From IMG/VR virus record IMGVR_UViG_3300012347_000070, positions 1 through 30,782 of that record: DNA of 30,782 bases. One strand, 5' to 3'. Shown here in pieces: positions 194 through 27,820 of this stretch; the stretch's first letter is position 1; each line of letters starts with the position of its first letter. The DNA is from a virus. The position numbers were made by a program, and so were the translations under genes. The notes beneath the pieces are model-generated. The model made no database searches, was not told the DNA's origin, and saw only the letters and a list, made by a program, of their open reading frames with translations.

Positions 194-202
194 TTATATT
201 TG
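170..202 (+). promoter_or_regulatory. Bacteroidota-type promoter candidate (-7 box TATATTTG at 195..202, T-rich -33-like gttttac at 173..179)
   Basis: Exact match to the TAnnTTTG -7 consensus of Bacteroides/Flavobacterium primary-sigma promoters. The -33 TTTG is imperfect. Confidence 0.4.
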
Positions 203-207
203 TAGAA

Positions 208-304
208 CAATAAGCCTAGCGGGTCGTAGCGGTAGGGTTATTTTAAGGGTTAAAACAACCTAAAGCCAGTTTTGCACTACGACGCAAGCTGGCTTTTCTT
301 TTTT
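208..304 (+). ncRNA. Candidate small structured RNA or attenuator leader, about 95 nt, no ATG
   Basis: Lies between the promoter candidate and the terminator. Contains a locally GC-rich 5' segment with TAGCGG twice 10 bp apart (217..222, 227..232), a possible 5' hairpin and a 3' intrinsic terminator hairpin. There is no start codon before 313. Confidence 0.25.
262..304 (+). terminator. Rho-independent terminator at the early/middle boundary
   Basis: aaagccag (262..269) pairs with ctggcttt (289..296). The stem extends by ttgc/gcaa (272..275 with 284..287), loop actacgac, followed by ttttcttttttt. Confidence 0.65.
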
Positions 305-312
305 ATAATAAT

Positions 313-525
313 ATGAGTTTTGACTTTGTAATGTTAGAAGCACAAGTACCAAATGAAATTTATTGCAAGGCAATGGGTATCATTTATTCAAATTTATCAA
401 TAAGCAATATTAAAACAGATTTTGAATTAAAAACAGATGAAAGTATTCATCATTTTAAATTATCTGAATGTAATCCAATTTCAGGAGTTGTTGCTTATAT
501 CAACGATTATAATGTAAAATTATAA
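313..525 (+). CDS. Hypothetical protein, 70 aa
   Basis: ATG ORF. Its stop overlaps the next start as TAATG (translational coupling). Confidence 0.55.
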   Translation: MSFDFVMLEAQVPNEIYCKAMGIIYSNLSISNIKTDFELKTDESIHHFKLSECNPISGVVAYINDYNVKL

Positions 526-1244
526 TGAAATACTTTTTACACGATTCCAATTCGTTTAATGACGAGAAAATAACTGAGCTTTATTTAGAGTTCGGCTATG
601 AGGGTCTTGGATTGTTTTATACTATACTTGAAAAGCTTGCCTTACAAGAGAAACCTATTAAGACAATAGTATTAAAACATCAGTTAAACGTAGGCAAAAA
701 ATTAGAAAAATGCTGGACGTTTATGGAAGAAATAGATTTAATTTCTTCAAACAATGGTGAAACTTTCAACAAACAATTGCTAAACTTTAGTGAAAAGTAC
801 CAAGTTAAAAAAGAAAAAAACGCTAAACGAATTGCAGAATGGCGTGAAAATCAACAAGTTAGCGAAGATGTAACGCGTTACGAACACGTTAGTAACACTC
901 CTAAAGTAAATAAAAGTAAAGTAAAAGAAAGTAAAGTAAATAATATAGAAGATTTTGAGTACTTCTGGACTACGTATAATAAAAAAATTGATAGAGTTAA
1001 GTGTGAAAAGATTTGGAATAAATTATCTTTAGACGAAATTCAAAAAATTACTAGCACGGTCTCACAATACGTAAACGCTAACTCAGATTTACAATACAGA
1101 AAAAATCCTTCTACGTATTTAAATGGCAAGTGCTTTAATGACGAAATAATAATTACAATTCCTAGACCTCAATACAATGGAACTAACGACAAACAACCGC
1201 TCGGAACATCTGCCGCAAGAATGGAAGCCATTAAAAACTGGTAA
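525..1244 (+). CDS. DUF4373 (Lin1244/Lin1753-like N-terminal domain) protein, putative replication initiator/replisome organiser
   Basis: The N-terminus MKYFLHDSNSFNDEKITELYLEFGYEGLGLFYTILEKLA resembles the DUF4373 signature as I recall it. There is a basic KVNKSKVKESKVN linker, and the gene sits at the head of the replication/recombination module. Confidence 0.6.
   Translation: MKYFLHDSNSFNDEKITELYLEFGYEGLGLFYTILEKLALQEKPIKTIVLKHQLNVGKKLEKCWTFMEEIDLISSNNGETFNKQLLNFSEKYQVKKEKNAKRIAEWRENQQVSEDVTRYEHVSNTPKVNKSKVKESKVNNIEDFEYFWTTYNKKIDRVKCEKIWNKLSLDEIQKITSTVSQYVNANSDLQYRKNPSTYLNGKCFNDEIIITIPRPQYNGTNDKQPLGTSAARMEAIKNW
904..940 (+). repeat. GTAAA-unit direct repeats inside the DUF4373 gene (AAGTAAAGTAAA at 914..925 and 929..940, AAGTAAA at 904..910)
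   Basis: Read directly. GTAAA starts at 906, 916, 921, 931 and 936 (spacings 10, 5, 10, 5 bp). Confidence 0.8.
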
Positions 1245-1935
1245 CGCTTCCGCTAATATCATACTACAAGCACAGAGCACTCAAAGCTTACGTTTAAGAC
1301 ACGAAGAGGACTTAAAGCAAGTGTTACGTTACTCAATGGTTTTAGTAGGTCTTAGAGGCAATAATATGCCTACCGAAGAAGAGAAGTTTGTATTACTTAA
1401 TTTTATACGCTCAAACTTTGGAAACCAAACACCAGAAGAGATAAAGTTAGCTTTTGAATTAGCGGTAAGTGGTAAATTAGAAATCGATGCTAAATGCTAC
1501 GAAAACTTCTCTTGTGAATACTTTGGTCGAATTATGAAAGCTTACATTGATTACGCTAGACAAGAGACTATAACGGTAGTAAAAGAGATAGAAGTAGTTA
1601 AAGAAATTCCAAGCGATGCGGATTTAAAGATAGCAGCGATTAACTCAGCTAATATGTACGCTCAAGAAATGATTAGATGTCACGAGCGTAATATAAAAAT
1701 GAATTGGTTAGCCGGAGGTTTGCACGTTCTTTACGATTACATTGTAAAATTTGGTATTTACGAGGCTAGTCCAGAGGATAAAAAAAGGATTTACTCTACT
1801 CTTGTAAACAAATTTGATAACAAAGACGAGTTAATTATTGCTTGTAAAGCGGCTTGTTATAGAGAGTTTATCGAAAACCTTGCAGACTTTAACGCTTATT
1901 TAGATGAGAACGGAAATATTAAACCTATTGACTAA
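1177..1935 (+). CDS. Hypothetical replication-module protein; start uncertain
   Basis: Long ORF. ATG 1177 overlaps the upstream gene by 68 nt; in-frame ATGs at 1336 and 1366 are alternatives. The stop overlaps the next start as TAATG. Confidence 0.7.
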   Translation: MELTTNNRSEHLPQEWKPLKTGNASANIILQAQSTQSLRLRHEEDLKQVLRYSMVLVGLRGNNMPTEEEKFVLLNFIRSNFGNQTPEEIKLAFELAVSGKLEIDAKCYENFSCEYFGRIMKAYIDYARQETITVVKEIEVVKEIPSDADLKIAAINSANMYAQEMIRCHERNIKMNWLAGGLHVLYDYIVKFGIYEASPEDKKRIYSTLVNKFDNKDELIIACKAACYREFIENLADFNAYLDENGNIKPID

Positions 1936-3098
1936 TGAAAACAATTCAGCACAAATCAAATATAGTAAACGACAATTATACAAAATACGTATATGAGTCA
2001 TACGATATTCAAAATAAAGAATTTACCTCTGTTGATATTAATTACCAATTAGATAAATTAGATTCTTTTGAATGGAATATTATAGTAATTTTTGGAGGGT
2101 CTGGAAGTGGTAAGACTTCTATTTTAAAAAATATTGGAGATATTAAAACACCTGCTTTTAAAAACGACATTTCTTTAATATCTAATTTTGATTGGTTAGA
2201 GCCTAAAGATGCAACTCACTTACTTACTTCAGTAGGTTTATCTTCAGTTCCTACTTGGTTAAGACCTTTTAGTTCATTATCAAATGGGGAGCAATATAGA
2301 GCAACAATAGCTTATTTAATTAGCAAATCAAAAGATGGAGAAATTATTTTAATTGATGAGTTTACATCTGTTGTAAATAGAGACGTAGCTAAATCTATGT
2401 CTTTTGCAATTCAAAAATATATTAGAAGGCAAAATAAAAAGGTAATTTTTGCTTCTTGTCATTATGATATATTTGAATGGTTAATGCCTGATTATGTATT
2501 ATCACCAGAAAAGGGAGGCGCACTTGAGAAAGGCGAATGGCTTAGGCAAGGAAAACCAAGTATTAAGTTATCAGTTTACAGATGCAAACCTAAAGTTTGG
2601 GACTTGTTTAAAAAGCATCATTATCTAACAGAGGAAGTAAATGAAGCCTATATCTTTCTTTTGTTTGAATTAAATAATAAACCAATTGCGATAAATGTTA
2701 TGGGTATTCAGGTAGGAATAACAAATTGTTCAAAAAGTTATCGAGAGTCTAGGATTGTTGTTTTGCCAGATTACCAAGGTATGGGATTAGGTAGTAAAAT
2801 TTCTGAATTTTGCGCTGGGATTTCTAAGTTTTCTGAATCAAATTATTATACAAAAACTAGCAATCCTGCTTTAGGTGAGTATAGGAATAAAAGTAATAAA
2901 TGGATTGGAACTGGTCACAATGGAAAACTAAGAAATCAAAAAATAAATTCTAATAATTTATATGTTGGATTAAGAGATTCAGTACATTATTGTCACAAAT
3001 ATATAGGTGAATCAATAGAAGGTTATAGTGATTTATTATTACCTATTGATAAATTACGTTATAATGAAGAACATAAATTTCAATTAAATCTATTCTAA
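1935..3098 (+). CDS. Fusion protein: N-terminal ABC-type ATPase domain + C-terminal GNAT N-acetyltransferase domain (387 aa)
   Basis: Walker A GGSGSGKTS (nt 2094..2120). ABC-signature-like LSNGEQ (2277..). Walker B IILIDEF (2343..). H-loop-like ASCHYD. GNAT acetyl-CoA motif VVLPDYQGMGLGSKISEF (QGMGLG at nt 2775..2792). Confidence 0.7.
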   Translation: MKTIQHKSNIVNDNYTKYVYESYDIQNKEFTSVDINYQLDKLDSFEWNIIVIFGGSGSGKTSILKNIGDIKTPAFKNDISLISNFDWLEPKDATHLLTSVGLSSVPTWLRPFSSLSNGEQYRATIAYLISKSKDGEIILIDEFTSVVNRDVAKSMSFAIQKYIRRQNKKVIFASCHYDIFEWLMPDYVLSPEKGGALEKGEWLRQGKPSIKLSVYRCKPKVWDLFKKHHYLTEEVNEAYIFLLFELNNKPIAINVMGIQVGITNCSKSYRESRIVVLPDYQGMGLGSKISEFCAGISKFSESNYYTKTSNPALGEYRNKSNKWIGTGHNGKLRNQKINSNNLYVGLRDSVHYCHKYIGESIEGYSDLLLPIDKLRYNEEHKFQLNLF

Positions 3099-3100
3099 TA

Positions 3101-3328
3101 ATGGCACACCACAATAAAATACTAGAACACAAAACGACTTGCTTACATTGTGGGCATAAATGGAATCCCGAGATATTGCAAAGCATAATGTACGAGCAAA
3201 ATAAAGAATCTGTTAATATGAAATGCTTTTGCGGTTCACGTTATAGACTATTTGAAAACATAAACGGATTTATGGTATTTAGAAAATACATAATGAAAAA
3301 AGACCAAGTTAAACGAAAGACAAAATGA
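3101..3328 (+). CDS. Small zinc-ribbon-like protein, 75 aa
   Basis: CLHC ... CFC cysteine pairs. ATGA overlap with the next gene. Confidence 0.5.
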   Translation: MAHHNKILEHKTTCLHCGHKWNPEILQSIMYEQNKESVNMKCFCGSRYRLFENINGFMVFRKYIMKKDQVKRKTK

Positions 3329-3675
3329 TAACTATACTTGGGCAAGTACCTAGCAAATCGAATGGCTACAAGATTGGAAACAATAGGCTTTACAAATCTA
3401 AAGAGCTAATTGAATACGAGAATAAGTTTAAATGGTTACTAGCTCTAGCTAAAGGTAAACCAAGCGAACCTATTAAAGATAAATTTAGCATTGAAATTTT
3501 TGTCTATTTTCAATCGAATAGAAGCGACTTAGACAACGCAGCAAAGATAATCTTGGATTGTTTACAAACTAGCGGAGTAATAGAGAACGATAGGCTATGC
3601 CATCGGTTACTAATGTATAAATTCATAGACAAAGAAAATCCAAGAATAGAATTTAAAATTAAGGTAATATCCTGA
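3325..3675 (+). CDS. rusA: RusA-family Holliday junction resolvase
   Basis: GQVPSKSNGY N-terminal motif and the SDLDNAAKIILDCLQTSGVIENDRL acidic catalytic block are typical of RusA. Size is 116 aa. Confidence 0.8.
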   Translation: MITILGQVPSKSNGYKIGNNRLYKSKELIEYENKFKWLLALAKGKPSEPIKDKFSIEIFVYFQSNRSDLDNAAKIILDCLQTSGVIENDRLCHRLLMYKFIDKENPRIEFKIKVIS

Positions 3676-3706
3676 TTTTTTAAAAACAATTTAAGGTTAT
3701 ATCCTT

Positions 3707-4069
3707 ATGAATTTTAACAATGATTTTAAGTTTGATTTAGAGTTTGGGGTATTAGATGGCGAGACTTGGTTTCACGAGCTAGTAACTAACAAGAAAGTAG
3801 AGGTTAAAAGCGATAGAAGAACAAGCGAAACAGGTAACGTTTATATCGAGTATTGGTCACGAGGTAAGCCTAGCGGAATATCAACAAGCCAAGCGGACTT
3901 TTACGTTTATAAAGTTGGAGAAGACAAAGCTATTTTAATATCGACTAGCCAATTAAAGAAAAGGATAAAGCAATTAGTAGAATTAGGCAATGCTAGAATG
4001 AATGTAAAAGGGGGAGATAATAATACAAGTTTGGGAATTTTATGTAAACTAACGGATTTAATAAATTAA
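3707..4069 (+). CDS. Hypothetical protein, possible PD-(D/E)xK nuclease fold
   Basis: D17 ... E32-V-K34 (VLDGE...VEVKSD) spacing is compatible with the D-x(n)-E-x-K motif. Weak, by eye only. Confidence 0.6.
   Translation: MNFNNDFKFDLEFGVLDGETWFHELVTNKKVEVKSDRRTSETGNVYIEYWSRGKPSGISTSQADFYVYKVGEDKAILISTSQLKKRIKQLVELGNARMNVKGGDNNTSLGILCKLTDLIN
3817..3845 (+). promoter_or_regulatory. ECF-type bipartite motif copy 1 (aaGAAC-N15-CGTTTATA), intragenic
   Basis: GAAC ends at 3822 and CGTTTATA is at 3838..3845. Same architecture as the five other copies. Confidence 0.35.
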
Positions 4070-4070
4070 T

Positions 4071-4376
4071 ATGGAAAAGAAACAAACGGCAATAGAATGG
4101 CTAATAGACAAAGTAGAAGACCATTTCTGTTTATTACCAGTAGATTTAATTCAACAAGCTATGAAAATGCAAGAAGAACAATTTAAAGATTTTTTTATGG
4201 TAGGTGGTGATTGGGATGAGCTTCCGAATTCGAGGTTCAATAGATACTTTGATTCAAATTATAACAAGTTTGATTATATAAATTTATCTAATGAAAATAG
4301 TTGCAATAGATATAGTACTTTAGAATCCTTAAAAGCTAAACAACAAGACAATGAAAAAAAAACAAACGGCAATTGA
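4071..4376 (+). CDS. Family-A small protein, paralog A1 (MEKKQTAIEWLI...)
   Basis: The N-terminal KKQTAI(E/D)xLI motif and the nucleotide block aaacaaacggcaat (4080..4093) are shared with A2 (4360..4373). A3 shares aaacaaacggca (29899..29910). Confidence 0.7.
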   Translation: MEKKQTAIEWLIDKVEDHFCLLPVDLIQQAMKMQEEQFKDFFMVGGDWDELPNSRFNRYFDSNYNKFDYINLSNENSCNRYSTLESLKAKQQDNEKKTNGN

Positions 4377-4632
4377 CTCATTAATTAAAAGATGTAATGA
4401 TTCATTAGATAAAGAACCTATTAATCCTACTCAGCAAAAGATTGTATATAGCAAAGCTTTGTGTCACATAATTATTCTATTAGAAGAAGCCAAAGAAATG
4501 GAAGAAAAGCAGATAAAAGATGCTTTTGTTGAATGTTGGAAATCTAATATACCAGAAGGTATAGAATGCAAACTATCAGCAAAAGAATATTACTATAAAA
4601 CATACGGAAATGCTAACGACAAACGAAACTAA
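4351..4632 (+). CDS. Family-A small protein, paralog A2 (MKKKQTAIDSLI ... AKEMEEKQIKDA ... KEYYYKTY)
   Basis: Shares the N-terminal, central EKEQI(K/L)DA and C-terminal YY-x-x-TY motifs with 29890..30114 and 30572..78. Confidence 0.7.
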   Translation: MKKKQTAIDSLIKRCNDSLDKEPINPTQQKIVYSKALCHIIILLEEAKEMEEKQIKDAFVECWKSNIPEGIECKLSAKEYYYKTYGNANDKRN

Positions 4633-4831
4633 AGCTATCGAGTGGATAGAAGTTCAATTACTTAAACCTAACGAACGATTTATGCTCAAGGATGGAATAT
4701 ATATCAACGACTTACATTCGTCTCTTAAAACGCAAAAGGAACGTATTCTATTTGGGATAGACCCGCTAAGAAGATTAGCATTTTTGAGAGTGAGAGAAAT
4801 TAAAGACTATCTAAACAATAAATACAAATGA
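4610..4831 (+). CDS. Hypothetical small protein with a family-A-like N-terminus (NETKAIEWIE)
   Basis: ATG ORF with ATGA coupling to the next gene. Only the N-terminus resembles family A. Confidence 0.55.
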   Translation: MLTTNETKAIEWIEVQLLKPNERFMLKDGIYINDLHSSLKTQKERILFGIDPLRRLAFLRVREIKDYLNNKYK

Positions 4832-5184
4832 GCAATATAGAAGACATAATTAAGACACAATACATAAGTTTGGATTCAGCAAAATTAAGAGTTTTTGTAG
4901 ATGACATAAAAAAATTTGAGCCAATATTTAATTTACATAAGCCGGAAAATATAAATGAAGGCTTTAATGAAGATTTTATACCGATACTTATTCCAGACAA
5001 AGAAAAGAGAGCAAAATATAATATACCGAGTTTTGTTGAAGATATAGCAATTTCAAGTGATAAGACTTATGATAATTGCCTAATTATATCGGTAAATGAT
5101 TGGTATGATATAAATTTACTTCACGATTGGATTCAAGATTATCTAAACCAAAAATACAATGACACCAAAAGAAAAAGCTTATGA
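4828..5184 (+). CDS. Hypothetical protein, 118 aa
   Basis: ATG ORF tiled in the operon. Confidence 0.6.
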   Translation: MSNIEDIIKTQYISLDSAKLRVFVDDIKKFEPIFNLHKPENINEGFNEDFIPILIPDKEKRAKYNIPSFVEDIAISSDKTYDNCLIISVNDWYDINLLHDWIQDYLNQKYNDTKRKSL

Positions 5185-5365
5185 GCTATTTAGTAAATTT
5201 TATTATGTTATTCCATCATTTGAATTACCAATAGATGACCAAGTAGCTAAAGAATGTTCACTAATTGCAATAGATGAGATAATGAAAGTAGTATCATTTT
5301 ATAACGATACACAAGCAGAATATTATTATTGGGAAGAAGTACAAGAAGAAATAGAAAAACTATGA
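5159..5365 (+). CDS. Family-B small protein, paralog B1 (MTPKEKAYELF...YYWEEV)
   Basis: The N-terminal MTPK(E/Q)KA-x-EL motif and C-terminal YW-x-(E/A)V are shared with 30382..30570 and, more loosely, with 6255..6431. Confidence 0.65.
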   Translation: MTPKEKAYELFSKFYYVIPSFELPIDDQVAKECSLIAIDEIMKVVSFYNDTQAEYYYWEEVQEEIEKL

Positions 5366-5535
5366 GACATATTAAGCTTAGAAAAATTGTAAGAAAGCAA
5401 AAGGCAATAGAGCAAGCTAAGAAAAACGCACCAGACCAAGGTAATAGTATTATTTATTTTGGTTTAGATACATACAATGAAATAAATGAAATGTTGAAAA
5501 ATAATTATAAAAAGGTTGAAAGATTTAAATTATGA
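5362..5535 (+). CDS. Hypothetical basic protein, 57 aa
   Basis: I prefer ATG 5362 (ATGA overlap with the upstream stop) to the TTG at 5329 used by the track. Confidence 0.5.
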   Translation: MRHIKLRKIVRKQKAIEQAKKNAPDQGNSIIYFGLDTYNEINEMLKNNYKKVERFKL

Positions 5536-5885
5536 GCCTAAGCCAAGAAGATAAAGACAAAGCACTAACCTATTTCACAATGTGTCAAGCATTAATTCAT
5601 ATTATTGAAGATGAGTGGATAGGAAACCCAGCGAATAGACAAAGAGTAAAGTCTATAACGAATCAACAACTTAAAGAGCTTGAAAAAGTAGTAGAGATTC
5701 TTTTACCAAGAGGAGATTACACCGAGCAAGGTATGAAAGTTACCGAGCAATTTATAGAAGCAGCTGAGGCAATGCTATTCTTTTACAAAATCGGAGTGCA
5801 AATGTCCCGACTAGATGATACTAAGAGAGAGACTTTGAATACACAAATGAATATTTTGTTAAAATCCTATGAAATAAATACTTAA
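5532..5885 (+). CDS. Hypothetical protein, 117 aa
   Basis: ATG ORF with ATGA overlap to the upstream gene. Confidence 0.6.
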   Translation: MSLSQEDKDKALTYFTMCQALIHIIEDEWIGNPANRQRVKSITNQQLKELEKVVEILLPRGDYTEQGMKVTEQFIEAAEAMLFFYKIGVQMSRLDDTKRETLNTQMNILLKSYEINT

Positions 5886-5889
5886 AAAT

Positions 5890-5921
5890 TTTGTTTAATC
5901 GATTTTTTTCATTAAACTTTG
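5890..5921 (+). promoter_or_regulatory. Bacteroidota-type promoter candidate (TTTG 5890..5893, N20, AAACTTTG 5914..5921)
   Basis: The -33 TTTG is present and the -7 box has one mismatch to TAnnTTTG. Spacing falls within the 19-21 nt range. It lies in the 51-nt gap before the DUF3310 gene. Confidence 0.35.
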
Positions 5922-5936
5922 CAAAAGTCAAACGAT

Positions 5937-6164
5937 ATGAACTACGTAGAACCTCACGAAAAACTTAGTTTAGTTAATCACCCACAACACTACCAAGGAA
6001 ACGGAATCGAAGTAATAGATATAATTGAAGCATTCAGTTTAAACTTCTCTCTAGGAAACTCAATAAAGTATATTTTAAGAGCAGATAAGAAAGGGAATAA
6101 GAAGCAAGACCTCGAAAAAGCGATTTGGTATCTTAACAACGAGCTAAAAAAATTCAATGGATAA
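5937..6164 (+). CDS. DUF3310-family protein
   Basis: VNHPQHYQGNGIEVIDIIEAF ... NSIKYILRADKKGNKKQDLEKAIWYL matches the DUF3310 pattern as I recall it. I chose ATG 5937 over the upstream TTG 5919. Confidence 0.7.
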   Translation: MNYVEPHEKLSLVNHPQHYQGNGIEVIDIIEAFSLNFSLGNSIKYILRADKKGNKKQDLEKAIWYLNNELKKFNG

Positions 6165-6175
6165 ATTAGTATTAC

Positions 6176-6218
6176 AAGCTATTTGGGTAGGAATTGCCGA
6201 GATAGCTTTTATTATTTA
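6176..6218 (+). terminator. Hairpin plus T-rich tail, possible terminator after the DUF3310 gene
   Basis: aagctat (6176..6182) pairs perfectly with atagctt (6202..6208), 19-nt loop, followed by ttattattta. Confidence 0.35.
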
Positions 6219-6254
6219 TATGAGCTACTTGATAGTTCAAGAATCAAAGAAGCG

Positions 6255-6431
6255 ATGAAACCAGACGAAAGAGCTAAATCGATTTTAAACAACGCTTTTT
6301 ACTTTACTGGTAATAAGAACCTAGCTAAAGAGCTTGCGCTTTGGATATGCGAACTAATAGGCGAAACAAAGCCTAAGATTGACGATAAGATTTACTGGAA
6401 GTTAGTAGCCGAAAACATTTATTTACTTTAG
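6255..6431 (+). CDS. Family-B-like small protein B3 (MKPDERAKSILNNAFYF...IYWKLV)
   Basis: ATG 6255 gives an N-terminus that aligns with MTPKEKAYELF of B1. The track's TTG 6183 start would run through the hairpin at 6176..6208. Confidence 0.5.
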   Translation: MKPDERAKSILNNAFYFTGNKNLAKELALWICELIGETKPKIDDKIYWKLVAENIYLL

Positions 6432-6907
6432 TGCAAGACATAACTATTCTAACTGATAAGCATAAGCACTGGGTCAAAATTGTAGAAGGTTTTGGCGAAA
6501 AGAATTACGCTCAAGATGTTGTTCAAGAGGCTTATATAAAAGTCTTAAAGATGAACAAAGATATTAATTATGCTTATTTCTACTACACGCTTAGAAGTCT
6601 TACGATGGACTTGCACTCAAAGAAAGTAGTTAAATGCGAGATTACAAGAGACATAGAGTATATGCTTCGAGAGGACGATAGCAACGAACTAGCGGAAGAA
6701 CTTGCACAACCTTATTTAGAATTTATAGAGACTTGGAATTGGTACGATAAGAAGATGTTTTTACTATGGGTAAACAATAACATCTCAATACGTAAGCTTT
6801 CAAGAGAAACAAAGATTAGCTTTAAAAGTGTTTACAATACAATTAGAAAGTGTAAAGAAAGAATCAAACAATGGCAAAAAGACCAATTAAAAGAAGAGTT
6901 ATTGTAG
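6431..6907 (+). CDS. Phage-encoded sigma-70 family (ECF-like) sigma factor
   Basis: Region-2-like YAQDVVQEAYIKVLKM ... YFYYTLRSLTMDLHSKK. Region-4 HTH-like WYDKKMFLLWVNNNISIRKLSRETKISFKSVYNTIRKCKERIKQ. 158 aa. GTG start overlaps the upstream stop (TAGTG). Confidence 0.6.
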   Translation: MQDITILTDKHKHWVKIVEGFGEKNYAQDVVQEAYIKVLKMNKDINYAYFYYTLRSLTMDLHSKKVVKCEITRDIEYMLREDDSNELAEELAQPYLEFIETWNWYDKKMFLLWVNNNISIRKLSRETKISFKSVYNTIRKCKERIKQWQKDQLKEELL

Positions 6908-7305
6908 AGCCTAAAGAAGAGGTAGCTACATTCTCGAACGCTCAGGGGTTAGGAGATACTATCGAAGCGTTTACTACCGTTATCGGAATTAAGAAAGGGG
7001 TAGAGTTATTATCTAAAGCACTAGACTGGGATTGTGGTTGTGACGAACGCAAAGAGAAGTTAAATAAGCTATGGTCGTATCGCAAACCTAAGTGTTTAGT
7101 ACAAGAGGATTACGAGTACTTAAAAGAGTTTTTCTCTAAGCCTCAGAACTCAATTACTCCTAAGGTGCAATGGGATTTAACCGACATCTACTATCGAATC
7201 TTCGATATTAGATTAGAGGCTTCGTCTTGTGCTTCGTGCTGGCGAGATTACATTTCACAAATTAGACAAGTTTATAACGTATTTGAAGAAGAAAATAATG
7301 GATAA
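6871..7305 (+). CDS. Hypothetical Cys-containing protein (GLGDTIEAF...CGCDERKEKLN...CASCW)
   Basis: ATG ORF overlapping the sigma gene by 37 nt. Confidence 0.65.
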   Translation: MAKRPIKRRVIVEPKEEVATFSNAQGLGDTIEAFTTVIGIKKGVELLSKALDWDCGCDERKEKLNKLWSYRKPKCLVQEDYEYLKEFFSKPQNSITPKVQWDLTDIYYRIFDIRLEASSCASCWRDYISQIRQVYNVFEEENNG

Positions 7306-7561
7306 GGTAGACAAACGAGGAGGAGCCAGAGAAGGGGCTGGCCGTAAATCTAAAGCTGAAGAACAATCTTTAGTAGAGAAGCTAACACCATTAGAGCCTA
7401 AAGCATTTGCGGTACTAGCTCAAGCGTTAGAAGACCATAAAGACTGGGCAGTTAAGCTATTCTTTCAATATCAGTTTGGTATGCCTAAGCAAGTGGTAGA
7501 CCAAAACACTACGCATACGATTAATGACTTTGACATTAAGGACATTGTAAAATTTAAGTGA
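7298..7561 (+). CDS. terS: Putative small terminase subunit
   Basis: Lies immediately upstream of terL and is coupled to it by a GTGA overlap. Basic N-terminus MDKVDKRGGAREGAGRKSK. ATG 7298 preferred over the track's GTG 7229. Confidence 0.45.
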   Translation: MDKVDKRGGAREGAGRKSKAEEQSLVEKLTPLEPKAFAVLAQALEDHKDWAVKLFFQYQFGMPKQVVDQNTTHTINDFDIKDIVKFK

Positions 7562-8769
7562 TAGAGCTAAATAGGAAATATGTACCTTTATTTGAAAGCG
7601 GAAGTAGGTACTTTGTAATTACGGGTGGAAGGGGTTCGGGCAAATCGTTTGCTTTGAACTCCTTTCTTTTGCTTCTAACGTACGAAGTAGGACACGTGAT
7701 ACTATTTACTAGATATACGCTTACTTCGGCTCATATCTCAATTATACCCGAGTTTGTAGAGAAGATAGAAATGGCTGGTCTTGAATCAGACTTTTACATA
7801 ACCAAAGACGAGATTATTAACACTCGTACAAATTCAAAGATTTTATTTAGGGGGATTAAAACCTCGAGCGGAACGCAAACCGCTAATCTCAAATCGTTAC
7901 AAGGTGTTACGACTTGGATACTAGACGAAGCCGAGGAGCTAACAGATGAAGACATCTTTGACAAGATAGACTTCTCTATTCGTAATAGCCAAAGACAAAA
8001 CCGAGTTATCTTAATTCTTAACCCGACTACCAAAGAGCACTTTATTTATAATCGATTCTTTGAAGAAAAGGGTGTTCAATCTGGACAATCCACAACGCAA
8101 GGCGATACGACTTACATACATACCACGTATAAGGATAATATTGATTACCTAAGTGAATCCTTCTTAAATCAAATCGAAGCCTTAGAGCGTACAAATAAAC
8201 GCAAATATGAGCATACGATTCTTGGAGGGTGGCTAGACAAAGCCGAAGGTGTAGTATTTACTAACTGGTCTTATGGGCAATTTAATCCCGACAACTTACA
8301 AACCTCATTCGGTCAAGACTTTGGTTTCTCGATTGACCCTACCACGCTAGTAGAAGTGGCGATAGATAAGACTAAGCGTAAGATATACGTTAAGGAGCAT
8401 CTTTATAAGCCCAAGCTAACTACAAGTGAGATAGCCCATATTAACAAGCGTGTTTGCGCTAAAGGATTAATTGTAGCGGATAGTGCCGAGCCTAGACTAA
8501 TAGCCGAGCTTCAGTCTCAAGGATGTAATATAATTGCGACAGAAAAAGGAGCGGGAAGTATAACGGCTGGTATCGCTTTAATACAAGATTACGAATTGAT
8601 TGTAGAATCTAACTCGCAAAACATTGGAAAAGAACTCAACAATTACATCTACTCAGATAAAAAATCTGGGCTTGTGGTCGATAACTTTAACCACGCTCTT
8701 GATGCGCTACGTTACAACGTCTTCTACCAGTTATCAAATCCAAACCAAGGAAAGTATTTCGTGTACTAG
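7558..8769 (+). CDS. terL: Terminase large subunit (PBSX-like family)
   Basis: Walker A ITGGRGSGKSF, Walker B-like TWILDEAEE, and a C-terminal RNase-H-like nuclease region (FGQDFGFSIDPT ... ADSAEPRLI ... HALDALRY). Confidence 0.9.
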   Translation: MIELNRKYVPLFESGSRYFVITGGRGSGKSFALNSFLLLLTYEVGHVILFTRYTLTSAHISIIPEFVEKIEMAGLESDFYITKDEIINTRTNSKILFRGIKTSSGTQTANLKSLQGVTTWILDEAEELTDEDIFDKIDFSIRNSQRQNRVILILNPTTKEHFIYNRFFEEKGVQSGQSTTQGDTTYIHTTYKDNIDYLSESFLNQIEALERTNKRKYEHTILGGWLDKAEGVVFTNWSYGQFNPDNLQTSFGQDFGFSIDPTTLVEVAIDKTKRKIYVKEHLYKPKLTTSEIAHINKRVCAKGLIVADSAEPRLIAELQSQGCNIIATEKGAGSITAGIALIQDYELIVESNSQNIGKELNNYIYSDKKSGLVVDNFNHALDALRYNVFYQLSNPNQGKYFVY

Positions 8770-8796
8770 TACAAAAAACAACAAATAACGTTTATA
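8767..8796 (+). promoter_or_regulatory. ECF-type bipartite motif copy 2 (tAGTAC-N16-CGTTTATA), 4 nt before ATG 8801
   Basis: CGTTTATA at 8789..8796. The -35-like element ends at 8772 (AC only, weakest -35 of the set). Confidence 0.45.
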
Positions 8797-8800
8797 CATT

Positions 8801-9478
8801 ATGAAGCTAGAGATAACTATTCCAACTAGTTTAAGCGAAATTAAGCTTAGCCAGTATTTAAAGTTTTTAGCCATTGCTGAGCAAAACGAAGAATCAGATT
8901 TTTTGCACCATAAAATGATTCAAATCTTTTGCAATGTAGAGTTGAAATATATTGACCAGTTTAAAAGAACTCAATTAATAGAAATAGTAAATAGTATTAA
9001 TTCACTATTTGAGAACGTGCCAGAGTTTAAGAATCGATTTGAGTTAAACGGAGTAGAGTACGGATTTATTCCAAACTTAGAGGATATAACGCAAGGGGAA
9101 TATATTGACTTAGATAACTATTTGCCAGTTAATAGCGATATGAATAAAGCTATGGCGGTAATGTTTAGACCGATAAAGCAAAGGTTTAAAGACAAGTATA
9201 TTATTGAGGATTATGCCGGCTCGAGTTTATATGCTGAAAAAATGTTAGATGCTCCATTAGATGTTGTTTTAGGAGCAAGGGTTTTTTTTTATCATTTAGG
9301 CAACGAATTATTGAAAAGTACGCTGACTTATTTGGAGGAGAAAGTGCCGAAAACGATTTTAGCGAACAAGCCCAATTTGGGAAAAGATGGGGATGGTATA
9401 GCTCTATCTATGCTCTCGCTCAAGGGGATGTTAGAAGATTTGATGAAGTTACCAGACTTCCGCTTAATCAATGTCTAA
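8801..9478 (+). CDS. Hypothetical structural-module protein (possible tail assembly chaperone-like), frame-0 product of 225 aa
   Basis: ATG ORF. Contains a T9 tract at 9282..9290, after which the -1 frame is also open. See the 9238..9543 feature. Confidence 0.65.
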   Translation: MKLEITIPTSLSEIKLSQYLKFLAIAEQNEESDFLHHKMIQIFCNVELKYIDQFKRTQLIEIVNSINSLFENVPEFKNRFELNGVEYGFIPNLEDITQGEYIDLDNYLPVNSDMNKAMAVMFRPIKQRFKDKYIIEDYAGSSLYAEKMLDAPLDVVLGARVFFYHLGNELLKSTLTYLEEKVPKTILANKPNLGKDGDGIALSMLSLKGMLEDLMKLPDFRLINV

Positions 9479-9543
9479 TGTTTTTAACATTTGAAAAGCA
9501 AAAGAACGAACTAGAAGTTAAATTAATTAATAAGCAAAAATAA
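9238..9543 (+). other. 101-codon stop-free -1 frame overlapping the 3' end of 8801..9478, entered at a T TTT TTT slippery site (9283..9289) and ending TAA 9541..9543 (TAATG with the next gene)
   Basis: Translated by hand: ...GFFLSFRQRIIEKYADLFGGESAENDFSEQAQFGKRWGWYSSIYALAQGDVRRFDEVTRLPLNQCLMFLTFEKQKNELEVKLINKQK*. The only ATG in this frame is at 9478 (a 21-aa micro-ORF, TAATG-coupled at both ends). Confidence 0.5.
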
Positions 9544-9998: not shown

Positions 9999-10540
9999 TG
10001 GAGTTAAAAGCTAGTACAAAACTTTTAGAGAAATACAAAAACTACGTTATTCAGCAGGCTAAAGCAAACTTGTCTAAAGGACGTAATAATATGTCTAAGA
10101 CTTTATACAATAGCTTAAAGGGAGAAGTGGTTACCGATACTGGTTACGCTATTGTCGGTTTTCGTATGGAGGAATACGGACAATTTCTAGACGAAGGGGT
10201 TAAAGGAGCATTTCCTAGCTCGGTTAAGAATGGTAAGCAAAAAGCCCCAAACTCTCGCTTTATGTTTACCAACAAAAGACCGCCAGCGGATGTAATAGCG
10301 GATTGGGCTAAACGTAAAGGAATAAGATTAAGAGATAGCGAAGGAAAGTTTAAGAAAGGAAACTATAAAACTTTAGGATTTATAATAGCTAATAGAATTT
10401 ATGCACAAGGGGTAAAGCCTACATTATTCTTTACAAAGCCTTACGAGGCCGGATTTAAGAAATATATTCTAGGACAAATGCCTAATGAAGTTGTAATAGA
10501 TGTAGACAGAATAATAGATTTAAATTTAATTAAGAAATGA
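9998..10540 (+). CDS. Hypothetical virion protein, possibly HK97 gp10-like head-tail joining
   Basis: ATG 9998 (TAATG overlap) preferred over TTG 9992. The EEYGQFLDEGVKG block loosely resembles the gp10-family Y-x-x-(F/V)-E-x-G motif. Confidence 0.6.
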   Translation: MELKASTKLLEKYKNYVIQQAKANLSKGRNNMSKTLYNSLKGEVVTDTGYAIVGFRMEEYGQFLDEGVKGAFPSSVKNGKQKAPNSRFMFTNKRPPADVIADWAKRKGIRLRDSEGKFKKGNYKTLGFIIANRIYAQGVKPTLFFTKPYEAGFKKYILGQMPNEVVIDVDRIIDLNLIKK

Positions 10541-11604
10541 TAATTTACGCAAGAAGTCCTTATTTTGTTGAGGTAAACGAATCTTTGCAATTAGGCTCAA
10601 AGGTTGAATTGTTTATTTGGAATAATCCAGATAGCGAGCCTTTAACACCTACTTATACGTTTACTAAGTCTATTGCTTCAACTGTTAATCGTAAAAACGT
10701 TTATAACATAGCTCCATACATTAAAGAGTATATTGAAGCTATTACTCCGAGTGATTCTACGGATTCTATGTTAGCTTTAGTAAAAGTAAAGCGTTACAAA
10801 GAAGCTACGCTAGGTACTTACACGCTATTAGATACTACTACATACTATTCTACAAACGGATATACTGACTACTCAGGTGGTTATAATCAAGCTGGCTCAA
10901 CGGCACAACCTTTAGTTTTAGCTAACACGTCTTTAGAATATCGCTACGAAGAAGGGATTACCGATTACCCATTTGTAAACGTGTGGGCAGATAATTCTAG
11001 CCCTGCTACGCTAACCGTTACCTACAAAGATTTAAGAGGTCGTAACGAGGTTACAAACACTATTACAAGAGATGGAGCTAAGTTATACAAAGTGCCTTTG
11101 CGTACTTCATCAATAAAATACGACAAGGGTAATACTTGTACTATTAACTGGAAACCAACTGGCGAGTATATAGACGATACTTACACTATTAATGTAATGC
11201 CTATTTGTGAGCCTAGATATAACCCGATTGTTTGTCAGTTTATTAATCGTTTTGGAGGATGGCAATTCTTGACTTTCTTTAAAGGGCAAACTACTAATAT
11301 TCAAACGCAAGGGACTACGTATAATTTACTTCCTGATGCGGTAGACTACAACACTTCAAGAGCACAAACAAAGAGCTTTAATATTAATGGAGCTAAAAGC
11401 ATACGTTTAAATACGGGATGGATTCCAGAGAACTACTCGGAGCTTATCCAAGACTTACTTCTATCCGAGACGATTCTTTTAGATGGAGTGCCGGTAGAAG
11501 TTAAGACTTTATCAACAGATTTAAAGACCTCGTTAAAAGATAGAAATATTAATTATGAGGTAGAGTTTGCTTACGGGTTTAACCTTATTAATAACGTAGT
11601 TTAA
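10537..11604 (+). CDS. Hypothetical tail/virion structural protein, 355 aa
   Basis: ATGA overlap upstream. Ser/Thr/Asn/Tyr-rich beta-type composition. Confidence 0.7.
   Translation: MIIYARSPYFVEVNESLQLGSKVELFIWNNPDSEPLTPTYTFTKSIASTVNRKNVYNIAPYIKEYIEAITPSDSTDSMLALVKVKRYKEATLGTYTLLDTTTYYSTNGYTDYSGGYNQAGSTAQPLVLANTSLEYRYEEGITDYPFVNVWADNSSPATLTVTYKDLRGRNEVTNTITRDGAKLYKVPLRTSSIKYDKGNTCTINWKPTGEYIDDTYTINVMPICEPRYNPIVCQFINRFGGWQFLTFFKGQTTNIQTQGTTYNLLPDAVDYNTSRAQTKSFNINGAKSIRLNTGWIPENYSELIQDLLLSETILLDGVPVEVKTLSTDLKTSLKDRNINYEVEFAYGFNLINNVV
10677..10705 (+). promoter_or_regulatory. ECF-type bipartite motif copy 3 (TTCAAC-N15-CGTTTATA), intragenic
   Basis: AAC ends at 10682 and CGTTTATA is at 10698..10705. 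Confidence 0.3.
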
Positions 11605-15371: not shown

Positions 15372-15950
15372 ATGCGAATCGTAGAATTAGTAATAGAAAA
15401 GGATTTAGACGGAATAGAAGCCGTAAGTCTGGTAGATGCGCCGGCAATAGAAGAGAATTTTATTGCTCTTAACAAAGAGTATAGAATGGACTTAGCCGAA
15501 GTAGATTCAGATAAGCGTATTCTTATGGGTGCTGCTTTAGTTCCTAACAAACAAATTTATCGAAGAAATGGTAAGGACGAGTTTTACGTATTCTTTAGCG
15601 AAGCAACGGTTAAGCAAGCGAGCGAGTTATTCTTAAAGAATGGAAACCAATCTAACGCAACTCTTGAGCATAAGAATAAATTCGAAGGGGCTACGGTTGT
15701 AGAATCTTGGATTATTGACAACCCAGAAATGGACAAGTCTAGGGCTTACGGATTCGATTTACCTAAGGGTACTTGGATGATTTCTATGAAGATAGAAGAC
15801 GAGAAAGTTTGGAAGGAAGTTAAAGAGGGTAAATACAAGGGCTTCTCTATCGAAGGATATTTTGCGGATAAATTAGAGATGTCTTTACAAGAGCTAGAAG
15901 AGGAAGAGTTAATTAATCAAATCATAAATATTTTACAAGATGGCGAATAA
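15372..15950 (+). CDS. XkdF-like putative prohead protease
   Basis: VSLVDAPAIEENFIAL ... ILMGAALVPN ... FFSEATVKQASELFLKNG ... NATLEHK resembles the PBSX XkdF family. It sits directly upstream of scaffold and capsid. Confidence 0.55.
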   Translation: MRIVELVIEKDLDGIEAVSLVDAPAIEENFIALNKEYRMDLAEVDSDKRILMGAALVPNKQIYRRNGKDEFYVFFSEATVKQASELFLKNGNQSNATLEHKNKFEGATVVESWIIDNPEMDKSRAYGFDLPKGTWMISMKIEDEKVWKEVKEGKYKGFSIEGYFADKLEMSLQELEEEELINQIINILQDGE

Positions 15951-16756: not shown

Positions 16757-17716
16757 ATGGCTACTACAACTAGTATTACAACAACTTACGCTGGCGAGTA
16801 TAAGAATCAGATTATCTCGGCTGCTTTATTATCTTCTCCTACTATCGATGCGGGTGGTATCACGGTTAAACCGGGTATCAAGTACAAAGAAGTGGTTAAG
16901 AAATTATCTACGGATGCAATCTTAAAAGATGCTTCTTGTGATTTTACGGCTACGTCTACAGTTACTTTAACTGAGCGTATTTTACAACCAGAAGAATTTC
17001 AAGTTAACTTACAATTATGTAAGAAAGACTTTCATTCTGATTGGTTATCAGCTCAACAAGGTTACTCAGCATTTGATGTATTGCCTTCTTCTTTCGCAGA
17101 CTTCTTAGTAGCTCACGTAGCGGCTAAAGTAGCAGCTAAGAACGAGACAAACATCTGGACTGGTGTAACTGCTAACGCAGGTGAGTTCAACGGATTCTCT
17201 ACATTATTAGCGGCAGATGCTGCTTTACCAGCTGCTCAAGAGGTTGCAGGTACAACGGTTACTGCTTCTAACGTAGTAGCTGAATTAGGTAAAATTGTAG
17301 ATGCTATCCCAGCTGCTCTTTACGGACAAGACGGTTTACATATCTACGTATCTCAGAACATCGCTCGTGCTTACGTTCGTGCTTTGGGTGGGTTTGCTGC
17401 TTCTGGCTTAGGTGCTAACGGTACTAACGCAATGGGAACTCAATGGTATAACAACGGTTCTTTATCATTTGACGGAGTAAAAATCTTCGTAGCAAATGGT
17501 TTAGCGGCTAACACTGCAATCGCTACTTTGAAAGAGAACTTGTACTTCGGTACTGGTGTTCTTGCAGATATGGATGCTTCTTCTGTAAAAGTTATCGATA
17601 TGGCAGACGTAGACGGTTCAGAAAACGTACGTGTAGTAATGCGTATGACAGCTGGTGTTCAGTACGGTTCGGTAGAAGATATCGTAACTTACGGAATCAC
17701 TAACGCAGCTAACTAA
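16757..17716 (+). CDS. Major capsid protein
   Basis: 319 aa, follows the scaffold, and is followed by a strong terminator. Ala/Gly/Thr-rich with strongly biased codon use (GCT, GGT, ACT, GTT). Confidence 0.7.
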   Translation: MATTTSITTTYAGEYKNQIISAALLSSPTIDAGGITVKPGIKYKEVVKKLSTDAILKDASCDFTATSTVTLTERILQPEEFQVNLQLCKKDFHSDWLSAQQGYSAFDVLPSSFADFLVAHVAAKVAAKNETNIWTGVTANAGEFNGFSTLLAADAALPAAQEVAGTTVTASNVVAELGKIVDAIPAALYGQDGLHIYVSQNIARAYVRALGGFAASGLGANGTNAMGTQWYNNGSLSFDGVKIFVANGLAANTAIATLKENLYFGTGVLADMDASSVKVIDMADVDGSENVRVVMRMTAGVQYGSVEDIVTYGITNAAN

Positions 17717-17730
17717 TTAGCTTATAAGAT

Positions 17731-17761
17731 AGCACCTCGTTAATTCGGGGTGCTTATTTTT
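17731..17761 (+). terminator. Rho-independent terminator after the capsid gene
   Basis: agcacctcg (17731..17739) pairs with cggggtgct (17746..17754). 9 bp including one G-U pair, loop ttaatt, then tattttt. Confidence 0.8.
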
Positions 17762-18335: not shown

Positions 18336-18361
18336 GGGGGAGCAGATGTCTTCCCCTTTTT
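18336..18361 (+). terminator. Rho-independent terminator
   Basis: gggggag (18336..18342) pairs with cttcccc (18350..18356), loop cagatgt, then ttttt. Confidence 0.7.
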
Positions 18362-18404: not shown

Positions 18405-18731
18405 ATGATAGTTTTAAGAGAATCCAATTTAGCGCAAAGTGTAAGATTCGTTCCTACTCGTAGAAATGCGGGGAATAAGCTATTTTTGCGAAACGAAACT
18501 ACTAACGTAGAAGTAGAATACGATATTACTTGTACTCAAACGTCTTACTATCTTACTTTCTCAAAGGTATTAACTTTAGAAGAAGGACACTTTTACACAA
18601 TGACTATAAAGCAAGATGCCGAGTTAATCTTTAGAGATAAGGTATTTTGCACGAATCAAACAATAGGAGCGTATAGCGTTAATAATAACGAGTACGTACA
18701 AAACGACCAAAATATAATTTTCTATGAGTAA
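18405..18731 (+). CDS. Hypothetical virion-module protein, 108 aa
   Basis: ATG ORF with 8-nt overlap with the portal gene start. Confidence 0.65.
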   Translation: MIVLRESNLAQSVRFVPTRRNAGNKLFLRNETTNVEVEYDITCTQTSYYLTFSKVLTLEEGHFYTMTIKQDAELIFRDKVFCTNQTIGAYSVNNNEYVQNDQNIIFYE

Positions 18732-20463
18732 CGTTCACGTTTTTAACTTTGAATCTCATAAGCCCCCGCAATCCGTAGAATCTAACAAAGAAGCTTGGGT
18801 TAATTTCGGAGACGATAACGACTACTTCAAGTACTTAATTGATAGATATAATAACTCGACTACTAATAACTCGGTTATTAATTCTATTAATAAGTTAATC
18901 TATGGTAGGGGATTAGATGCAACGGACTCAAACAAAAAGCCGAACGAATACGCTCAGATGAAAATGTTATTTCGTCCTGAGGTATTAAAGTGCGTTATTA
19001 CCGACTATAAATTACTTGGACAAGGATACTTTCAATTAATCTATAACAAGGCTAAGAATGCGATTATTAGAGTAGAGCACGTGCCAGCTCAATTAATCCG
19101 CTCCGAGAAATGCAATGAGAAAGGCGAAATTACTGGTTATTACTATTCTGATAACTGGCAAGACATTAAGAACTTTGTGCCAAAGCGTATTAGTGCATTT
19201 GGTTATGGCGATAAAACGTTAGAGATTCTTTGTGTTAGAGATTATAGCGTAGGACAAAAATACTATTCTAACGTAGATTATATCGGGGCTTTGCCTTACG
19301 CTAAGTTAGAAGAAGAGATTGCTGACTATTTGATTAACGATGTTCAAAACGGGTTTTCCCCTACTAGCGTTATTAACTTTAATAATGGTGTACCAGACGA
19401 AGAGAAACAAGGTTTAATTGCAGCAGACGTAAAGCGTAAATTAGCGGGTTCTAGCGGTGCTAAAATTGTTGTAGCGTTCAATAGTGACGAGACAAAGAAA
19501 ACGACTATTGATAGCGTACCTTTAAACGATGCTCCGGCACACTATACATATTTAAGTGAAGAATCGAGAGGCAAGATTTTATTAGGTCACTCTATTACTA
19601 GTGGCTTGCTATTTGGTATCCCTTCTAACAATGGATTTAGCTCAAACGCTGACGAGTTAAAGAATGCTTCTATCTTGTTTGATAATATGGTAATTCGTCC
19701 TAAACAAGGAACGGTTTTAGATGCTATCGACAAGATTTTAGCGTTTAACAATATTAGCTTAAATCTTTACTTTAAGACTTTACAACCTTTGGAATTTATT
19801 GACCAGAATCCGGCAATGAATACCGAGCAAGTAGAAGAAGAGACTGGTTTGAAGCTTTCTTCTCAATTAGAGGAGCTAGAAACTTACGGAGAAGAGTTAG
19901 ACCTTAACGAGTGGGAGTTAATCGATTCTAGGGTAGTAGAAAGCCTTGAGGAGGAAGAGAAATTAAACGCTGAGTTAGAATTATTAAACAATCCTAAAAA
20001 ATCGGTATTTAGTAAGATTTGGGAGTTAGCAACGGTATCTACCGGAGTGGCTAGACCAGACTTAAAATCTGCTTTAGATGGTAAGTTATTTATTTCTCGT
20101 TATCGTTATAGCGGTAACCCTACTCCCGAAAGAGCATTTTGTAAAAAAATGATGCAAATGAATAAACTATATCGTAAAGAAGATATAGATAAGATGAGCC
20201 AAAAGAATGTTAATCCCGGCTTTGGTATGGCTCCTAACCCAAATGCTCCTTACGATATTTTTCTTTGGAAGGGAGGCGGTAAATTAAGCAATGAGTTTCA
20301 GTTTGGGACTTGTAAGCATTTTTGGACGAGAGAAACTTATAAGAGATTCACAGACCCAAGAAAGAAAGGAACGGTAGAGATTACCCCGGCACAAGCTCGC
20401 AAGGCTGGCGAAATTTTACCAACGGTAGACAAGAGAGCGTATATTGCGCCTCACGATATGTAA
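18724..20463 (+). CDS. Portal protein with an extended Cys-containing C-terminal domain
   Basis: 579 aa. The N-terminal two thirds look portal-like (size, YYSDNW, acidic stretch EEETGLKLSSQLEELE). The C-terminal ~140 aa carry ERAFCKKM ... GTCKHFW. Confidence 0.6.
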   Translation: MSNVHVFNFESHKPPQSVESNKEAWVNFGDDNDYFKYLIDRYNNSTTNNSVINSINKLIYGRGLDATDSNKKPNEYAQMKMLFRPEVLKCVITDYKLLGQGYFQLIYNKAKNAIIRVEHVPAQLIRSEKCNEKGEITGYYYSDNWQDIKNFVPKRISAFGYGDKTLEILCVRDYSVGQKYYSNVDYIGALPYAKLEEEIADYLINDVQNGFSPTSVINFNNGVPDEEKQGLIAADVKRKLAGSSGAKIVVAFNSDETKKTTIDSVPLNDAPAHYTYLSEESRGKILLGHSITSGLLFGIPSNNGFSSNADELKNASILFDNMVIRPKQGTVLDAIDKILAFNNISLNLYFKTLQPLEFIDQNPAMNTEQVEEETGLKLSSQLEELETYGEELDLNEWELIDSRVVESLEEEEKLNAELELLNNPKKSVFSKIWELATVSTGVARPDLKSALDGKLFISRYRYSGNPTPERAFCKKMMQMNKLYRKEDIDKMSQKNVNPGFGMAPNPNAPYDIFLWKGGGKLSNEFQFGTCKHFWTRETYKRFTDPRKKGTVEITPAQARKAGEILPTVDKRAYIAPHDM

Positions 20464-27770: not shown

Positions 27771-27820
27771 ATTTGTAAGATTTGTTTCATAATAGATAGG
27801 TTTAGAATTGTTTATAATAA

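Follow-up and report, generated by a model that had tools for sequence, protein, structure and literature searches.

Bacterial extracytoplasmic function (ECF, group 4) sigma factors, represented by B. subtilis SigW, E. coli sigmaE, P. aeruginosa AlgU and M. tuberculosis SigH and SigL, are proteins of about 160 amino acids with a sigma-2 domain, carrying a conserved D-x-V-Q-E block, and a sigma-4 domain with a C-terminal helix-turn-helix (HTH); regions 1.1 and 3 are absent. Their promoters share a published signature, AAC in the -35 element and CGT in the -10 element, exemplified by the TGAAAC-N16-CGTA sequence read by SigW (PMC5758882). Sigma factors are also common in phages, with 13.4% of the phage genomes in VOG encoding one (PMC9429907), and the phage ECFs were too divergent for capture in the ECF classification 2.0 (PMC7826278). 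In phiEco32 and 7-11 a phage sigma with its own middle and late promoters is established; in phages of this type, the Kuravirus type included, it succeeds early transcription by the host sigma and drives the structural genes from phage-specific promoters (PMC4331800). Here we consider a gene at positions 6431-6907 of the virus record IMGVR_UViG_3300012347_000070, the complete 30,782-nucleotide stretch of which was analysed and is referred to as the window. It probably encodes a minimal ECF-type sigma factor, sigma-2 followed by sigma-4, which redirects host RNA polymerase to four promoters of the phage.

The open reading frame (ORF) is on the + strand and encodes 158 amino acids. Its GTG start shares one nucleotide with the stop codon of the preceding ORF, 6183-6431 (TAGTG). 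Among 5.8 billion proteins a word-indexed search found 111 homologs of similar length and 35-100% identity, many on contigs of approximately 30 kb, and IMG/VR holds more than 500 relatives, so that this is a real, conserved gene. A large share of the 111 homologs carries the JGI pipeline label 'DNA-directed RNA polymerase specialized sigma24 family protein' and, since near-identical copies have already been labelled automatically in this way, the gene call itself is no discovery. A late sigma of ECF type is an already known kind of phage switch, of which the window protein is a new, divergent member. The lineage has been found in phage genomes only. Contig scans of 185,579 representative bacterial genomes gave two marginal matches only, the family being practically absent from them, and neither megablast of positions 5500-9500 nor tblastn of the sigma protein found a match among 50,697 phage records. 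On the contigs with the most distant homologs (about 36% identity), L082 (3339-4526) and L083 (2261-3448), the sigma gene is accompanied by an integrase gene and a divergent repressor-like module, so that some of the phages with this family appear to be temperate.

We assign the protein with high confidence to the ECF-type sigma superfamily, as a divergent member. The initial annotation had proposed, as checks, a profile search and a structure prediction followed by a Foldseek search; both were carried out and neither refuted the assignment. With the single protein the profile results are suggestive. The Pfam family Sigma70_r2 is matched at E 0.049 (13.9 bits, cut-off 24) and the PHROG 'RNA polymerase sigma factor' at E 0.086. 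Whole ECF models are covered in NCBIfam, with PRK12527 at E 6.4e-7; the sigma70-ECF model TIGR02937 is matched over its full length at E 3.4e-5 (23.5 bits, cut-off 42.9) and the Bacteroidetes ECF subfamily TIGR02985 at E 9.5e-4, under its curated cut-off. The signal is clearer in an alignment of 31 family members. TIGR02937 is matched by 29 of the 31 (E<=1e-3, best 6.1e-12) and TIGR02985 by 13 (best 2.6e-10), the latter and SigZ being the closest NCBIfam subfamily signals for the family. The Pfam scan is weak member by member, with Sigma70_r2 recognized in three of 31. Compared with the PDB, the family profile aligns with sigma-2 of SigW (E 0.022) and SigR (E 0.046), then with sigma-4 of SigH (3mzy, E 0.0045), in the right order. 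A PDB search with the single sequence produced matches to arginine kinase only, which are spurious. Identity as a YlxM/UPF0122 HTH protein (PF04297, a single domain of about 100 residues) was also considered and rejected; only residues 107-150 match and the conserved sigma-2 half is outside that family.

The AlphaFold2 model (pLDDT 82) has one helical bundle at residues 5-64 and another at 84-157, with a low-confidence linker between them, so that sigma-2 and then sigma-4 folds are present in one chain. The sigma-2 domain (6443-6622, residues ~5-64, helices 11-20, 27-39 and 47-64) aligns to the corresponding domains of SigW and SigR. It holds a region 2.1/2.2-like block, D29-x-V31-x-E33-x-Y35, and a region 2.3/2.4-like segment, YFYYTLRSLTMDL. 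The sigma-4 domain (6680-6901, residues ~84-157) carries the helix-turn-helix ISIRKLSRETKISFKSVYNTIRKCK, with the family pattern S-R...E..I...S...T. Across the 31-sequence alignment D29, V31, E33 and Y35, in the 'AEDIVQEAY' block, are invariant together with Ser119 and Arg121 of the HTH. Superposition on PDB entries with Foldseek places ECF sigmas in nearly all of the top 35 or so positions (AlgU, sigmaE, SigL, SigH, SigW, CnrH and SigK), with about 150 columns aligned and a probability of approximately 1.0. The whole-chain TM scores are low because the relative orientation of the two domains differs; with sigma-4 taken alone, as in the structures 2h27 and 3vep, the TMt is 0.7 and the RMSD 1.6-2.7 Å. 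Against BFVD the model retrieves phage proteins that carry ECF or sigma-70 annotations, at E values down to 6.7e-8. These include the annotated sigmas of Citrobacter phage CVT22 and Cronobacter phage GAP52, which we take to belong to the phiEco32-like group.

The similarities to the bacterial ECFs thus extend to size, domain order, the D-x-V-Q-E block and the C-terminal HTH, and these proteins are the best structural matches. Regions 1.1 and 3 are absent, the linker is short and there is no extra domain. The minimal two-domain layout first proposed for this protein, with a region-2-like block ahead of a region-4 HTH-like block, is borne out by the family profiles and the fold, and the three peptides on which it was based, YAQDVVQEAYIKVLKM, YFYYTLRSLTMDLHSKK and ISIRKLSRETKISFKSVYNTIRKCKERI, are all present in the translation of 6431-6907. 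The differences are that the window protein is phage-encoded, shares only 10-20% identity with the bacterial proteins and has a shorter sigma-2 loop, and that neither a recognisable anti-sigma partner nor an autoregulatory promoter accompanies it. Identity with the sigmas of the phiEco32, 7-11 and Kuravirus type is 10-18%, and phage type, host phylum and promoter consensus are all different.

The late-region intergenic spacers of the window share a bipartite motif, (G/T)AAC-N15/16-CGTTTATA. Four intergenic sites, all on the + strand, are each positioned right before a late operon. P1 (8768-8796, TAC-N16-CGT, AGTACAAA-N-ACGTTTATA) directly follows the stop codon of the terminase large subunit gene (TerL, 7558-8769, + strand) and its box ends 4 nt from the ATG of ORF 8801-9478. 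P2 (15340-15367, AAC-N15-CGT, GTAACAAA-N-ACGTTTATA) likewise ends 4 nt from an ATG, that of the head protease gene (15372-15950, + strand). P3 (18371-18399, AAC-N16-CGT, GAAACAAA-N-ACGTTTATA) ends 5 nt from the ATG of ORF 18405, which the portal gene (18724-20463, + strand) follows. P4 (25288-25316), with the same AAC-N16-CGT arrangement and GAAACAAA-N-ACGTTTATA boxes, is further away, 20 nt from the ATG of ORF 25337-25606. The units are bounded by intrinsic-terminator-like hairpins on the + strand. That at 17731-17754 follows ORF 16757-17716, which belongs to a PHROG of unknown function, and closes the P2 unit; that at 18336-18356 is directly 5′ of P3; the late region closes with the third, at 27819-27847. 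Downstream of TerL there are also tail genes and a gene for a metallophosphoesterase.

A motif set had been reported separately in the initial annotation and it does exist: the + strand has seven exact copies of ACGTTTATA and the - strand none (0.38 expected). The two-part pattern AAC-N15-17-CGTT[AT]AT is found six times on the + strand and not on the - strand, with 0.31 expected and none of 500 shuffles reaching that number. A two-block position weight matrix (PWM), trained on other loci only and then applied to the window, recovers the four strong intergenic sites, with nothing on the - strand. A wider set of 80 loci contains 86 sites in the orientation of the genes and 12 in the opposite one. 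Orthologous spacers are informative here. Approximately 50 non-identical examples downstream of TerL, covering P1, and ten upstream of the protease gene, between flanking proteins of 50-90% identity, keep both boxes at equal spacing while the intervening sequence varies (box variants include TGTTTATA and GGTTTATA). Such a phylogenetic footprint supports a function for the motif. The four intergenic sites follow the layout of ECF promoters, in which AAC at -35 is separated by about 16-17 nt from a group-specific -10 element, often CGT, and the SigW promoter, TGAAAC-N16-CGTA, is close to the AAC and CGT elements and 15-16 nt spacer of the window (PMC5758882).

Copies of the motif are also found within genes. 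A weaker one, AGAAC-N15-CGTTTATA, is at 3818-3845 on the + strand in ORF 3707-4069 and another, TCAAC-N15-CGTTTATA, at 10680-10705 on the + strand in ORF 10537-11604. Exact CGTTTATA copies in ORFs on this strand, the boxes of these two included, are at 3838-3845, 3904-3911 and 10698-10705, two of the three with AAC 15 nt upstream. The intragenic copies may be internal promoters or chance matches.

A parallel is provided by the cultured Nonlabens (Persicivirga) phage P12024L (L088). Its gp35 (YP_006560434), a protein of 159 amino acids encoded upstream of TerL, is described in GenBank as 'hypothetical protein, containing Sigma-70 region 2'. It scores 25.2 against Pfam Sigma70_r2 and so passes the gathering score of 24. 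With about 21% identity to the window sigma gp35 is too distant for tblastn and was located through TerL synteny; hhalign aligns it end to end with the profile of the 31-sequence alignment (probability 95.6%, E 1.2e-8). In both phages the sigma gene is a few small genes upstream of TerL, the two TerL proteins are 58% identical, and gp37 and gp38 are homologous, gp38 weakly, to the two small ORFs that separate sigma and TerL in the window. P12024L has six intergenic AAAACAAA-N16/17-CGTTAAT(A/T) sites, all on the + strand, at 2999-3026, 5380-5407, 22059-22086, 24740-24766, 25979-26006 and 27580-27607 for gp05, gp08, gp37, gp42, gp45 and gp46, respectively. Each stops 3-4 nt short of the ATG of a structural-module gene, and the set looks like an unannotated group of late promoters in a cultured phage. 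The -10 box is one fixed base apart by lineage, CGTTTAT in the window and CGTTAAT in P12024L. The arrangements differ in that P12024L has one promoter between sigma and gp37-gp38-TerL, which puts its terminase genes under the motif, whereas in the window ORF 6871-7305 begins within the sigma gene, with no strong site ahead of it. Riemerella phage RAP44 serves as a control. It shares the type of TerL, has no annotated sigma gene, and neither strand of its genome contains a motif site; gp34, the sole candidate tested as a hidden sigma, is unrelated (hhalign probability 0.9%). A literature search of incomplete coverage returned no study of gp35 or the motif, nor any on late transcription driven by a sigma in phages of Flavobacteriia.

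These observations are consistent with the following scheme. Host RNA polymerase would transcribe a long rightward early block, of which the sigma gene is the last regulatory gene and which apparently also takes in ORF 6871, a small terminase subunit (TerS)-like gene and TerL. Translation of the sigma would be coupled to that of the upstream ORF. The protein would then bind the core of the host, Flavobacteriia-type, RNA polymerase and send it to the sites at 8768, 15340, 18371 and 25288, and the four promoters would head structural, morphogenesis and lysis-side operons, with intrinsic terminators delimiting the units. We infer that this sigma reads the motif and binds the host core, and likewise when the genes are expressed and where transcription begins.

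Could the protein instead be a sigma-derived transcription factor, an activator or repressor acting through its C-terminal HTH, with AAC-N16-CGTTTATA read by one of the roughly 22 ECFs that a Bacteroidota genome encodes? Several profile matches cover the C-terminal HTH only (YlxM/UPF0122, Mga, HTH_11 and the 'positive control sigma-like factor' PRK06930), Bacteroidetes are rich in ECFs (PMC7826278) and the promoter is of the generic ECF class (PMC5758882). However, the family is most conserved in an N-terminal block that aligns with region 2.1/2.2 of SigW and SigR, the part that binds core, and the matches to ECF models and structures run over their full length, beyond sigma-4. The motif, moreover, is one fixed base apart in two phage lineages with different sigmas and hosts, and is absent from RAP44, a Flavobacteriia phage that has no annotated sigma gene. 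We therefore regard a transcription factor as unlikely.

A second alternative accepts a genuine sigma but takes CGTTTATA-N4-ATG to be a signal in translation or at the mRNA level, or the site of some other regulator, with the sigma acting elsewhere, for instance at host genes or at phage promoters yet to be recognised. The spacing between box and ATG is indeed unusually constant. It is 4-5 nt in three of the four window sites, and over the 80 loci the ATG is exactly 5 nt past CGTTWAT in 32 of 66 unique contexts. Bacteroidetes lack Shine-Dalgarno-led initiation and their AT-rich initiation signals are unexplained (PMC3160421). Against this, the motif has two parts, the AAC being conserved at exactly 15-16 nt upstream and the spacer free to vary; it marks only the first gene past an intergenic gap or terminator rather than each of the late genes; some sites, P4 among them, are 8-21 nt away from the ATG; and the layout is that of the published ECF consensus (PMC5758882). 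This explanation seems to us rather improbable. A degenerate sigma mimic, as in PhyR, or a packaging-related, small-terminase-like HTH protein that would for that reason be next to the terminase genes is highly improbable since, although PhyR sigma-like domains are among the weaker Foldseek matches and the gene is two ORFs upstream of TerL, there is a separate TerS-like ORF at 7298-7561, the protein has no receiver or other partner domain, and the best structure and profile matches are bona fide sigmas.

Returning to the sigma with four cognate promoters, the short distance between box and ATG can be read in terms of transcription. If the C of CGT is taken as position -12, in line with ECF promoter geometry, the A of ATG is +1 in P1 and P2 and +2 in P3, and most related sites are alike. 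Transcription would then begin on the start codon or one or two bases from it, and the late mRNAs would have no leader or almost none, as the -10 box ending 4-5 nt before the ATG in most sites suggests. Here the window departs from the bacterial ECFs, having an extended -10 element (CGTTTATA) so near the ATG that leaderless transcripts are implied. It is possible, but we put it forward only tentatively, that sigma and promoters form a dedicated late-expression module that makes leaderless mRNAs, starting on the A of the ATG, and is conserved as far as P12024L, with the product of ORF 6871 as a conceivable partner or regulator of the sigma. This would be in a phylum for which computational surveys predict few leaderless genes (PMC3160421). 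If true, phages of Bacteroidota would link the sigma that is used to the way in which translation begins.

Several observations weigh against a sigma factor dedicated to these four promoters. The protein by itself reaches no curated family cut-off and its sigma-2 interhelix loop is shorter than in canonical ECFs. The link between sigma and motif consists of co-occurrence in two lineages and one negative genome. The -10 box at 4-5 nt from the ATG can also be read as an element linked to translation. The distant sigma homologs (35-37% identity, L082-L087) show no PWM match in the limited late sequence available, and so contribute no informative covariation; the sole motif-like find among them is TAC-N16-TGTTTATA-N5-ATG, downstream of TerL in L082. 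A co-transcribed anti-sigma and positive autoregulation are typical, though not defining, of ECFs and neither was found. No anti-sigma partner was identified, and the sequence ahead of the sigma gene has no strong motif site that would indicate autoregulation. Two weak sites were set aside as off-consensus and in coding sequence, namely GAAACAAA-N15-CGATAAGA, from about position 6363 in the ORF preceding sigma, and a possible internal promoter, GAAACAAA-N18-TGTTTACA, at 6805-6835 in the 3′ end of the sigma gene; conservation at both is confounded by the constraint on the encoded protein.

The position of the terminase genes is a further difficulty. The initial annotation envisaged a switch to late transcription encoded just upstream of them. 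The gene is indeed there, but the strong late promoters begin only after TerL, and with the terminase genes ahead of P1 'late' is not cleanly separated from the transcription unit of the sigma itself. Similarly, of the self-contained reprogramming system that was suggested, a cognate-looking promoter set is present but neither an anti-sigma factor nor an inhibitor of the host sigma was identified. Phages of the phiEco32 type do encode an inhibitor of transcription by the host sigma.

Immediately downstream, ORF 6871-7305 (+ strand) overlaps the 3′ end of the sigma gene by 37 nt and encodes a Cys-rich protein of 144 amino acids, the homolog of P12024L gp37. More than 940 homolog clusters, all 'hypothetical', constitute this family, in which GLGD, Cys55, Cys57, Cys75, Cys120, Cys123 and WRD are invariant. 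In about 60 relatives the ATG is likewise inside the end of the sigma gene that encodes sigma-4. Considered as a candidate anti-sigma factor, it gave no match in family searches, and the model is poor (pLDDT 65) and without a fold match. The protein is possibly a partner of the sigma or a packaging protein. The next ORF, 7298-7561 (+ strand, MDKVDKRGGAREGAGRK...), overlaps the start of TerL and is considered TerS-like on the basis of its position and its weak similarity to P12024L gp38; it, too, has no match in family searches.

The two ends of the window, 1-55 and 30728-30782, are the same 55-bp direct repeat, which indicates a complete phage genome of 30,727 bp that is terminally redundant or was assembled as a circle. 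The G + C content is 34.9% and every plausible gene is on the + strand. An Erf-like annealing protein (28571-29086), a replication initiator (525-1244), an ATPase (1935-3098) and RusA (3325-3675), all on the + strand, form with many small ORFs the early and replication block upstream of sigma. The sigma gene, ORF 6871, the TerS-like gene and TerL continue this block without a break, and a search of the + strand from 313 to 9000 found no terminator. The closest relatives of TerL are from Nonlabens phages P12024L/S, followed by those of Riemerella phages (47% identity); a Flavobacteriia (Bacteroidota) host is thereby supported, in agreement with the Bacteroidota phage envisaged at the outset. 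Rfam and tRNA scans of the window returned nothing. Sigma-70 consensus promoters show no excess over chance, and the Bacteroidetes -7 box TAnnTTTG is marginal, with 51 copies genome-wide compared to 41.5 expected, a number reached in three of 100 shuffles; for these reasons early promoters could not be mapped.

Some other features of the window deserve comment. A host-type Bacteroidetes -7 box, TATATTTG, at 195-202 is followed by a non-coding stretch of about 100 nt (window 195-305). This folds well (MFE, minimum free energy, -33 kcal/mol, z -3.4, equalled by none of 200 shuffles) and closes with a hairpin and U-run right before the first early ORF (313). It has no Rfam match and is a candidate small RNA or leader/attenuator. 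The small early ORFs 4071-4376, 4351-4632 and 29890-30114 (repeat families D1/D2) are paralogous, with an N-terminus of the MxKKQTAI(E/D)WL type and a second conserved block (…AKEMEEKQI…DA…) in common, which suggests duplication of a small early gene. ORF 5919-6164, of 81 amino acids, matches PHROG 236 and related 'nucleotide kinase' families strongly (E 3e-28), though only the C-terminal part of the profiles. Directly behind the portal gene there is a GIY-YIG-type homing endonuclease gene (20467-20985; PHROG 314, E 5e-26).

What the analysis adds to the existing automatic labels is a candidate regulon that can be tested, comprising a sigma, four promoters of defined consensus and late operons bounded by terminators, for a widespread group of uncultured Flavobacteriia-type phages of approximately 30 kb. 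The parallel logic in P12024L, which is available together with its cultured host, gives an immediate test system. Orthogonal pairs of sigma and promoter that work in Bacteroidota would be useful as genetic tools. Finally, the geometry between promoter and ATG is a hint that late mRNAs may be leaderless in Bacteroidota, whose signals for translation initiation are poorly understood.

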